Positions 3,001-6,000 of a stretch of DNA of 9,729 bases are shown one piece after another. The stretch comes from a virus. Lineage: Duplodnaviria > Heunggongvirae > Uroviricota > Caudoviricetes. Made by a program: the position numbers. Numbering within the stretch: position 1 is the first letter of the stretch; every line of letters begins with the position of its first letter. The stretch covers positions 1-9,729 of the IMG/VR virus record IMGVR_UViG_2675903368_000011; one strand, written 5' to 3'.

Positions 3001-6000
3001 CAACAAAAAACTGGTCCGAGACATTTACTGAACGCTGGGTTGCAATGAAGCACATTTTTCTACAGCTTGATAGTGATGCTTTATTGCTTGTGACGAGAAC
3101 ACGTTCAAAACAAAAGGCAGCATTTTTACAGCAAAATATTGCAAAACTGGATTAAAAGCCATATACTTCATGCAAATTTGGTATATTGTAAAAAATGTAT
3201 AAACCCGCTGCCGAGTGGGTTTTTTTTATGCCCTGAGTTGTACTTGTACGGTAAACATGCTGGCTGCTATGTAATAGAGTTTTTTTAGCCTGTAACCTCT
3301 TGACGGCATTGAATTGCTTTTGTTATGAGTTGTAAGCCAATGTTATCATCTTGTATTGGGGTGGTTATGAAGGATGGTGCGCTGCTCAGGAGTTCTTCAC
3401 TTTTTATTGCCTACATGGGATGCCTTGGATGGGGGAGTGCTTATTTCTATGGATGGGGTACTTCTTTTTACTACGGCTTCCCATGGTGGATTGTAGGTGC
3501 AGGTGTTGATGATGTTGCCAGAAGTTTATTTTTTGCAGTTATTGTCATTGCTATATTTCTTATCGGTTGGGGTATTGGTGTTGTATTCTTTTTCGCAGTG
3601 AAAAGAAAACATTCTATGCAAGAGCTAAATGTATTTCGCCTTTATTTTGCTGTGGAATTATTGTTTGTGCCGGCAATTATTGAGTTTTCTATATTGAGAC
3701 AGAAGATTCAGGTACCTCTTTTGCTACTGTCAGCAGCGATTGCGCTGGCGGTTACAATTTCGATAAGATCTTATGGGCGATTTTTATCAGTATCATGCTT
3801 CTATGATAAGCCATTTATAAAAAAACATTTTTTTGAGATTGTGATGATTGCTTTTGTGGCATATTTTTGGCTTTTTTCATTTCTGACAGGATATTACAAA
3901 CCACAGTTTAAGAAAGAATATGAAATGATTAATTATAATGATGGTTGGTATTATGTTCTTGCTCGTTATGATAATTGTCTGGTTTTGTCTACTTCTTTCA
4001 ATGCAGGTAGTAAAAGGTTTGTCATTTATCAATCAGCACAAGATAAGAATCTTCAGGTTGATATTGTAAGGACCAGAATTTAATTGGCTGCATAAATAAT
4101 ATTTTAAGTTGCAAGTTGGCTATTCGTAGGAATAGAACCTTAGGCATGCTGAATGCGTTTTCTGAACATTGTTTTATAAACTGTGTCTGCTTGCTGTTGT
4201 GATCCTGCTTTTAGTGATGGTGATGATGGATTTCACCAGCAGGATAATGTTGGTACTGACAGATGGCGCTCTGGTCTGCGGCATTGTGGTATTGCTGTGG
4301 CCGATGATGAAAGAACAGAATGAATAATTCTTGACTTTTTTGTTTACTGTTTATTAAAAAATCAACCGCATGGTGAATCCTCCTTGGAGGGGCTAAATGA
4401 TCGAGTTTTAAGGGCACGTAGCGAGTTCTGTTTGATCATTGCAGAACTTAGCGGGAGGCGCCATGCGTACATCACTAGTGTTATTCCTTTTATCATTTTC
4501 CTTGTGAGTTCTGGCTGCGCATTGCGCAGCCTTTTTTTTATGACCTGCCACTGGCAGATGGTCATCCTGTGATTTGATTCCGCTTCCGGCTTTTTAACAC
4601 TGTTCCTCTACACGGGAGAAATTCGATGTCGATTAAACATTACGATGTTGTCAGGGCGGCGTCGCCGTCAGACCTTGCGGAAAAGCTGACACACAAACTG
4701 AAAGAGGGCTGGCAGCCATACGGCGGACCGGTTGCCATTACGCCGTACACACTGATGCAGGCGGTGGCTATTGAAGGAGAGCCACAGGTCGGCCCTTCAT
4801 CTGAGCCGGATTGGTACTACGTCATCGTACTGGCCGGGCAGTCCAATGCCATGGCTTACGGTGAAGGGCTTCCGCTGCCGGATTCATACGATGCTCCGGA
4901 TCCGCTCATTAAACAGCTGGCGCGCCGCAGTACAGTGACGCCGGGCGGGGCTGCCTGCAGATATAACGATATTATTCCGGCTGACCACTGTCTGCATGAT
5001 GTGCAGGATATGAGTACGCTGAATCATCCGAGGGCTGACCTGAGCAAAGGGCAGTACGGCTGTGTCGGTCAGGGTTTACATATTGCCAAAAAACTGCTCC
5101 CGTATATCCCGAATAACGCGGGGATCCTGCTGGTACCATGCTGTCGTGGTGGTTCGGCATTTACCCAGGGCGCGGAGGGGACATTCAGCGAGTCCACGGG
5201 GGCCAGTCAGGATTCGGCACGCTGGGGGGTGGGCAAGCCGTTATATCAGGATCTGATTTCCCGCACAAAAGCGGCATTGCAGAAAAATCCCAAAAACGTT
5301 CTGCTGGCCGTCTGCTGGATGCAGGGTGAGTTTGACATGAGCGCCGCCACCCACGCACAGCAACCTGCGCTGTTTACAGCCATGCTGACACAGTTTCGTG
5401 CTGACCTCTCCGTGTTTAACGCGCAGTGCCATGGTGGCAGTGCTGCAGATGTGCCGTGGATTTGTGGTGACACGACGTATTACTGGAAAAATACATACGC
5501 TACCCAGTACGACACCGTGTACGGCGGGTATAAAAACAGGGAGAGTGAGGGCGTTTATTTTGTGCCCTTCATGACAGAAACCCGCCGTACTTCAAAGTGA
5601 AACCCGAGGGCTGGGATAACCAGTGGGCGGGTGATGAAGATTACCTGAAGTGGCTGGACCAGTGTCTTGCGCAGTTCTGGCGGGTGCTGAAACCTGCCGG
5701 AAGTCTTTACCTGTTCTGTGGCCATCGTCTGGCATCTGACACCGAAATCATGATGCGTGAGCGGTTTAACGTGCTGAACCATATCATCTGGGCAAAGCCG
5801 TCCGGACGCTGGAACGGGTGCAACAAGGAAAGCCTGCGGGCGTATTTCCCCGCCACAGAGCGCATTCTGTTCGCAGAGCATTATCAGGGGCCGTATCGTC
5901 CGAAAGATGCCGGGTATGAGGCGAAGGGTAGGGCACTGAAACAGCATGTGATGGCCCCGCTGATTGCTTACTTTCGTGATGCGCGCGCTGTCCTGGGGAT

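Follow-up and report, generated by a model that had tools for sequence, protein, structure and literature searches.

A prophage membrane protein gene behind a putative Q82-type late promoter is very probably the phage-434-type allele of the TfpB/STM1630 family

The membrane protein family that Pfam lists as TfpB (PF27470), RefSeq as the STM1630 family and PHROGs as phrog_1521 has no function assigned under any of these three names. The Pfam name presumably originates from tfpB of the type IV pilin inversion region of Moraxella, and we know of no function reported for Moraxella TfpB in the older Moraxella literature. The Salmonella Typhimurium member, STM1630, has its own mapped transcription start, is silenced in ST313 by single nucleotide polymorphisms (SNPs) in its -10 box and is induced in macrophages (bioRxiv 10.1101/689075), and its expression clusters with that of Salmonella pathogenicity island 2 (SPI-2) and of the PhoP-type envelope genes ugtL, lpxO, pagD and pqaA (PMC2639726). 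In this study we analysed a 9,729-nucleotide stretch of viral DNA (Caudoviricetes; positions 1 to 9,729 of the IMG/VR record IMGVR_UViG_2675903368_000011), referred to below as the window, and found that an AT-rich gene in it, designated tfpB, is very probably the phage-434-type allele of this family. The gene and the elements that bear on its boundaries are the following.

3367-4083, + strand: tfpB/STM1630-family gene, the most likely coding region (238 amino acids (aa) plus stop)
3325-3366, + strand: in-frame 14-codon upstream extension of the mechanically called open reading frame (ORF), probably untranslated and missing in most homologues
3358-3364, + strand: ribosome-binding site GGGGTGG as read from the sequence, 2 nt before the ATG at 3367

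A 1-kb region of the window is 99.8% identical to phage 434 (OL657226), in which the neighbours are the same: lpxR, ylcG, a Q82-like Q gene, a terminator, tfpB, the DUF3927/TciB gene and a SASA esterase gene. The phage 434 counterpart, CPT_434_68 (UMO75332.1, 'putative membrane protein'), is 100% identical over 238 residues, and RefSeq holds the identical protein as WP_001299184.1, the labels in use there being 'hypothetical protein' or 'STM1630 family protein'. In comparison with phage 434, the window has an additional methylase-tRNA segment downstream and a second module consisting of a DUF3927 gene, a small RNA (sRNA) gene and an esterase gene, whereas tfpB itself is no different. Near-identical DNA was present in 692 of 5,426 complete E. 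coli genomes (~13%), and the median number of places in a genome was two.

The protein was placed by PHROGs in phrog_1521 (annotated as unknown function), and PF27470.1 (TfpB) was precomputed for almost all of the 103 homologues found in the protein database at E ≤ 0.001; the cluster representative P0001, which carries PF27470.1, is 100% identical to the window protein over the shared residues. Local Pfam and NCBIfam scans of the window protein gave no match, the local copies being without the PF27470 model, and a scan of 49 aligned members returned only scattered noise, including one bPH_10 match at E = 0.045. Membership in the PF27470/STM1630 family is supported by the family model, by homology to the proteins that gave the family its names and by the shared architecture. 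A literature search yielded nothing on the RefSeq accession or the phage 434 record, and the hits for tfpB were dominated by unrelated acronyms. The gene is already known, since the identical protein has been deposited, annotated and assigned to Pfam, RefSeq and PHROG families, and as it is catalogued in an uncharacterised family it is not novel as an object. The original prediction had regarded it as an orphan of no recognisable family, which does not hold; its statement that the gene has no described function stands.

The family is small. When 1.84 billion representatives were searched exhaustively with the profile, 72 proteins were retrieved at E ≤ 0.001, of which ~20 were full length, and a scan of one genome per species revealed 27 loci in Escherichia, Salmonella, Pasteurellaceae, Moraxella and Conchiformibius. 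The latter scan used a narrower alignment; the widest one offered no conserved stretch. Among the loci it recovered were those of M. bovis, M. lacunata and M. equi (E = 1e-16 to 1e-19), which have pilin genes and IS110-type Piv genes on their flanks. The carriers among Pasteurellaceae include Aggregatibacter, Glaesserella, Actinobacillus, Pasteurella, Rodentibacter, Avibacterium and others, and Citrobacter, Cronobacter, Klebsiella, Enterobacter, Yersinia and Shigella are represented through cluster members. Every host seen is a bacterium associated with animals.

The open frame called in the window (3325-4083, + strand) comprises 252 codons. Full-length homologues are 236-240 aa long and their first residue is equivalent to M15 of this frame, so the start is most likely at 3367, which gives 238 aa and matches the 717-nt coding sequence annotated in RefSeq. 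This start is also favoured over 3325 because the ATG at 3325 sits within the -10 hexamer of a promoter-like element. The ratio of nonsynonymous to synonymous divergence (dN/dS) was 0.07-0.18 in nine allele pairs from different replicons, some of them at saturated synonymous divergence, which indicates a working gene maintained by purifying selection rather than a chance ORF. Thus, the ORF is a real, conserved protein-coding gene. Its GC content was 36.0% (35.8% from the likely start, 29% at third codon positions), compared to 45% in Q and NinI, 56% in the nanS-p esterase gene, 55% in the methylase gene and 48% in the whole window. The expectation that the gene is AT-rich far below its flanks (45-56%) was therefore correct, the 33% GC given with it being too low. 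Phenylalanine, tryptophan and tyrosine make up 21% of the protein, residues 16-45 contain 19 F/W/Y/G out of 30, and several long hydrophobic stretches are present.

AlphaFold2 produced a model with a predicted local distance difference test score (pLDDT) of 80 and a predicted template modelling score (pTM) of 0.74 from 49 sequences that included distant members. It was these distant members that repaired a first model, which had been built from 30 close sequences and was too poor (pLDDT 59). The model contains helices at residues 10-36, 47-79, 84-111, 116-137 and 155-181, followed by a C-terminal domain of five beta strands (184-235). The predictions of an aromatic-rich polytopic membrane protein and of a soluble C-terminal tail are in line with these five predicted helices and with the beta-rich nature of the tail, the length of which is ~60 residues and not the ~70 proposed earlier. 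This helix/beta layout aligns across members at 12-30% identity from four bacterial families; the M. lacunata and M. equi copies match residues 9-186 only and are without the C-terminal beta domain. Moreover, lysine plus arginine averaged 9.3 in the N-terminus and loops 2 and 4 in comparison to 1.5 in loops 1 and 3, and the inside count exceeded the outside count in 49 of the 49 members. By the positive-inside rule, loop 1, loop 3 and the beta domain would lie in the periplasm, and the protein is predicted to reside in the inner membrane with five transmembrane helices and a cytoplasmic N-terminus.

The conserved motif GWGSAYFYGWGxSFYYGFPWW occupies the outer end of helix 1 and extends into loop 1. 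Other conserved positions than those of this region (A25-Y26-W30-G37-W40) are R52-S53-L54, G175-Y177-K178-P179 and Y195-Y196; R52-S53 correspond to the outer end of helix 2, and G175-Y-K-P comes after helix 5. The most conserved positions of the family are thus predicted by the model to face the periplasm. The alignment of the whole TfpB family contains no conserved Asp, Glu, His, Cys or Ser, and for this reason the protein is probably no enzyme; neither invariant residues of the polar catalytic type nor a match to an enzyme fold was found. The structural comparison that the original prediction had recommended revealed no relative, as Foldseek searches against the PDB and viral models returned nothing at E ≤ 0.001, and PDB sequences searched with the profile yielded 0 matches at E ≤ 10.

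The following features of the upstream region were relevant to the expression of the gene and to its possible partners.

1032-1991, - strand: LpxR-family lipid A deacylase gene (PF09982, E = 7e-40), candidate partner
2466-3155, + strand: Q82-like antiterminator gene (PF06323, E = 1e-91), start as in phage 434 and RefSeq
3139-3188, + strand: putative Q82-type late promoter pR', from promoter scan and conservation
3201-3230, + strand: intrinsic terminator (tR') with a 9-bp stem and T run, an annotated terminator in phage 434
3300-3329, + strand: promoter-like element, with -35 TTGACG (3300-3305), TG (3321-3322) and -10 TATGAG (3324-3329)

The Q protein of the window is 88% identical to that of phage 82. 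DNA similarity with other Q82-type phages runs ~33 bp past the Q stop codon and stops at ~3188. The block common to the window, PhiR47_2 and a PPompW phage consists of TTGCAA, a 17-nt spacer, TATA(C/T)T, ~14 nt and T(A/G)TAT(A/T)TT, which in the window are represented by the -35 TTGCAA (3139-3144), the -10 TATACT (3162-3167) and a downstream -10-like TATATT (3182-3187). The gap between Q and the holin gene of PhiR47_2 is only ~310 bp, so its late promoter must be situated there, and the shared block is the sole part of this gap that is common to the window. We infer from the sequence that 3139-3188 is an 82-type pR' with a promoter-proximal -10-like pause element, an architecture established for phage 82. 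The gene had been expected to lie between Q and the late promoter; the putative pR' and the terminator are both upstream of it. Together, pR' and the terminator (3139-3230) would yield a short leader RNA of ~55 nt, and the same place showed a weak sub-threshold Rfam match to STnc240 (3162-3231; 29 bits, E = 0.07).

The same hairpin precedes alleles that lie behind other Q types and an allele in a prophage remnant, and prophage-derived copies retain the AACCCGC...GCGGGTTTTT terminator. In phage 2B8 a different Q gene is closely followed by a promoter-like stretch, which we take to be lambda-type, and then by the same tfpB gene. In 2B8 as in the window, tfpB would therefore follow the late promoter cognate to the respective Q gene, the position that is occupied by stx in Shiga-toxin phages. 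This agrees with the view of the original prediction that the gene occupies a moron position, the site being a classic one, and the recurrence next to Q that it had proposed as a check was observed as well: in other prophages homologues follow Q genes of the Q82, lambda and DUF1133 types.

Besides the putative late promoter, tfpB appears to have a promoter-like element of its own. The pattern CTTGAC(G/T), 17-18 nt, TGTTATG(A/T) is kept ~65 bp before the start codon in five unrelated contexts, which include Q82-type and DUF1133-type Q genes, a remnant with iroBC and bor, and a heat-labile toxin (LT) plasmid of enterotoxigenic E. coli (ETEC). This element travels with the gene and may act as a sigma-70-like promoter here.

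Further upstream, at ~817-890 (+ strand), the first ~22 codons of a lambda-type Q gene overlap the end of the NinI phosphatase gene. The lpxR-ylcG-Q82 block cuts the lambda-type Q gene after these ~22 codons, a fragment that is annotated in phage 434 too, and this suggests that the resident Q was replaced by recombination.

The contexts of tfpB outside the window are diverse. Alleles 56-68% identical are located after a Q82-type Q and after a DUF1133-type Q directly before the holin gene, another allele follows a DUF1133-type Q plus a methylase gene, and in a Citrobacter freundii prophage an allele lies after tail fibre genes. Homologues on ETEC plasmids (L035-L039, 2987-5714) adjoin eltAB and STb, the one on a Klebsiella plasmid (L052, 5001-8394) adjoins STb and two-partner-secretion genes, and in a remnant the allele is beside iroBC and bor. 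The Salmonella homologue (L004, 4349-6717) adjoins sseJ. In Pasteurellaceae tfpB stands alone between housekeeping genes that differ by species; in Glaesserella parasuis (L012, 5001-8017) it adjoins cdtABC, of which cdtA and cdtC were found and the middle ORF, with no Pfam match at E ≤ 0.001, is presumed to be cdtB, and in Mesocricetibacter it adjoins an HlyB/HlyD exporter. In Moraxella the gene has the Piv recombinase gene on one side and pilin genes on the other, and apart from this pairing no conserved neighbour was found across 22 distant loci. As alleles occur behind three Q families and behind tail genes as well as on toxin plasmids and within chromosomal islands, tfpB is a self-contained, stand-alone moron cargo gene.

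We tentatively propose the following chain of events, to which as a whole we assign somewhat less than an even chance. The terminator, the sigma-70-like promoter and the gene would form a unit directly downstream of the Q82-type pR', at an stx-like position. In the lysogen, the gene would be transcribed from its own promoter, and after induction Q-mediated read-through would be added as a late boost. TfpB, as a non-enzymatic inner-membrane protein exposed at the periplasmic face, might then bind or block something at that face, which is the weakest step of the chain. The outcome would be a change in a property of the host envelope, that is, lysogenic conversion or host adaptation and not phage lysis or assembly.

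Several observations weigh against this proposal. The topology and fold are predictions, and the model built from close sequences was poor. The argument that TfpB is not an enzyme relies on missing conservation in a small, divergent alignment. The -10 hexamer TATGAG of the promoter-like element is weak, and no start site has been mapped for the window allele. No family member has a function assigned by experiment, STM1630 being the one member studied so far. Deletion of STM1630 caused no macrophage replication defect (bioRxiv 10.1101/689075), and the sole reported phenotype is a hypermotility score of the Salmonella deletion in a screen (PMC4219756). A follow-up study, for which this deletion and others were re-made free of the resistance cassette, warns that part of the motility effects of the screen might have been polar (PMC4534456).

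Other roles of the protein have to be considered beside the proposed change of the host envelope. A prophage inner-membrane protein could act in superinfection exclusion or another anti-phage function by blocking the entry of incoming phage DNA at the periplasmic face. The family does occupy the moron sites of known exclusion genes (behind Q and behind tail genes), is accompanied by its own promoter-like element, moves as a stand-alone gene without partners and has a conserved surface that is predicted to be periplasmic. However, PADLOC gave 0 matches for the protein and only noise for the 49 relatives (best E = 0.014, AbiC), and the four families given by PHROGs are all of unknown function with none annotated as exclusion, so the defence role suggested by the original prediction found no support in these databases. 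Moreover, long-lived non-prophage chromosomal copies of Salmonella, Citrobacter and Pasteurellaceae are situated outside defence islands, and the Salmonella copy is regulated with virulence genes. We consider exclusion unlikely. A function in lysis, for example as a holin or antiholin modulator of the late operon, is very improbable: the family is found in chromosomes and plasmids without lysis genes, PhiR47_2 is a functional phage of the same Q type without tfpB, the gene appears to have its own promoter, and no holin match was obtained in Pfam or PHROG. This is despite the membrane nature of the protein and despite several prophages that carry its gene in the interval from Q to the holin gene, in one type directly before the latter. 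Least probable of all, and to our mind scarcely credible, is a selectively neutral passenger or decaying ORF. The truncated M. lacunata and M. equi copies and several frameshifted database entries could be read in this way, but the dN/dS values given above, low even at saturated synonymous divergence, contradict neutrality (~1 expected), and the full-length architecture has been kept at 12-30% identity across four bacterial families.

Another candidate role, as the inner-membrane component of a cargo for remodelling of lipid A or lipopolysaccharide with LpxR as the partner, was suggested by the original prediction. It is distinctly unlikely, and the linkage of the two genes is inconsistent. 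LpxR was found within 3 kb of TfpB in three arrangements in a sub-clade of at least 65% identity, namely divergent across the Q82 module (the window), directly divergent in the Citrobacter rodentium chromosome and convergent in another E. coli prophage type; the alleles have co-diverged (TfpB 66-68%, LpxR ~73%), and STM1630 expression clusters with lipid A modification genes. At the same time, 41 of 72 IMG/VR prophage contigs that encode the identical protein and have enough upstream DNA are without LpxR: 30 carry LpxR together with Q82 and these 41 carry neither. As lpxR-ylcG-Q82 is one block that interrupts the lambda-type Q, lpxR travels with the Q82 block and not with tfpB. Phage 2B8 has tfpB without lpxR, and no LpxR was detected near any allele of at most 59% identity or near any Pasteurellaceae or Moraxella copy. 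In C. rodentium (L044, 3863-5717) an intact tfpB lies immediately next to a divergently oriented lpxR that is broken into two ORFs (164 and 175 aa); this locus is syntenic with the Salmonella STM1630 locus, in which sseJ takes the place of lpxR. A precomputed PmrD match for a 105-aa gene beside lpxR in an E. coli prophage (L048, 7187-7504, - strand) was not reproduced with local Pfam at E ≤ 0.01. The placement beside toxin and virulence loci might itself be functional and not hitch-hiking, TfpB then being a new stand-alone inner-membrane effector. The neighbours counted for this are the stx position, eltAB and STb, cdtABC, sseJ, the HlyB/D exporter and the Moraxella pilin switch, and possible roles would be self-protection, help in release or export, or a novel exclusion or immunity at the periplasmic face. 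We regard this as improbable, to about the same degree as the partnership with LpxR; the adjacency may mark prophage-derived toxin cassettes or be a coincidence among AT-rich islands.

Downstream of tfpB the window contains the following genes.

4169-4327, + strand: DUF3927 ('TciB-like') small membrane protein gene (PF13064, E = 3e-14)
4338-4542, + strand: PasD/STnc100-type sRNA gene (Rfam STnc100, 41 bits, E = 4e-7, below the gathering score)
4626-5600, + strand: DUF1737/SASA esterase gene (nanS-p type), first copy, which stops at 324 aa where the methylase gene begins
5597-6526, + strand: N6/N4 DNA methylase gene
6576-6651, + strand: tRNA-Met (CAT), downstream of the methylase gene
6752-6828, + strand: tRNA-Arg (TCT), downstream of the methylase gene
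7284-7430, + strand: 48-aa ORF with similarity confined to the C-terminal part of TerB (PF05099, E = 1e-7)
7599-7771, + strand: paralogous sRNA gene (Rfam STnc100, 101 bits)
7909-9729, + strand: second esterase copy, open for 607 codons and running off the window end

DUF3927 was considered as an obligate partner of tfpB and rejected. It lies downstream of the window allele in 75 of the 75 IMG/VR contigs with enough flank and after no other allele, and the second copy of the window (7427-7594) has no tfpB beside it. DUF3927 belongs to the DUF3927-sRNA-esterase module. The module is duplicated (4178-4808 and 7436-8091), the region 4314-4808 being repeated at 7574-8091, and the methylase-tRNA segment looks like an insertion between the two copies. 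The ORF at 7284-7430 immediately precedes the second DUF3927 copy and probably represents a gene fragment. tRNA genes are typical of the late regions of Stx-type prophages. For the region 4338-4542, which had been taken for a late promoter module, an sRNA gene was found instead, with a strong terminator at its end (4513-4540, terminator scan). According to a 2026 preprint, PasD is a prophage sRNA that is bound by Hfq, is related to STnc100 and has the conserved neighbours Q and LpxR; in phage 2B8 the preprint places pasD directly upstream of a sialate esterase gene. The gene at 4338-4542 occupies exactly this position before the esterase gene, and on that ground it is PasD by position.

For the window itself, the analysis corrects two points: the putative late promoter directly follows Q, and the downstream element is a PasD/STnc100-type sRNA gene. 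As an object tfpB is ordinary and would not surprise a phage specialist, and it is the repeated placement of the family by toxin loci that is notable. TfpB is a small family under strong purifying selection that occurs only in animal-associated Proteobacteria, is without recognisable structural relatives and lies by several classic toxin loci. A phenotype for the family would annotate thousands of prophage genes of enterohaemorrhagic E. coli (EHEC), enteropathogenic E. coli (EPEC) and ETEC as well as Salmonella STM1630.

Among known systems, HK97 gp15 and P22 SieA are small prophage inner-membrane exclusion proteins that are encoded at moron sites, have their own promoters and act at the periplasmic face. 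Neither by sequence nor by profile was a similarity to TfpB detected for these two, and unlike them the TfpB family lives outside prophages too. STM1630 of Salmonella Typhimurium, also in PF27470, is of the same length as the window protein, 46% identical to it over 238 residues and encoded by a gene of 37% GC. It differs in being chromosomal and non-prophage, in its location next to sseJ and in its co-regulation with virulence genes of the SPI-2/PhoP type. The TfpB proteins of Moraxella bovis and M. lacunata differ from the window protein in their place between recombinase and pilin genes, but at 26-29% identity they have the same N-terminal motif (AY.YGWGQ..YHGYPWW) and the same helix layout.

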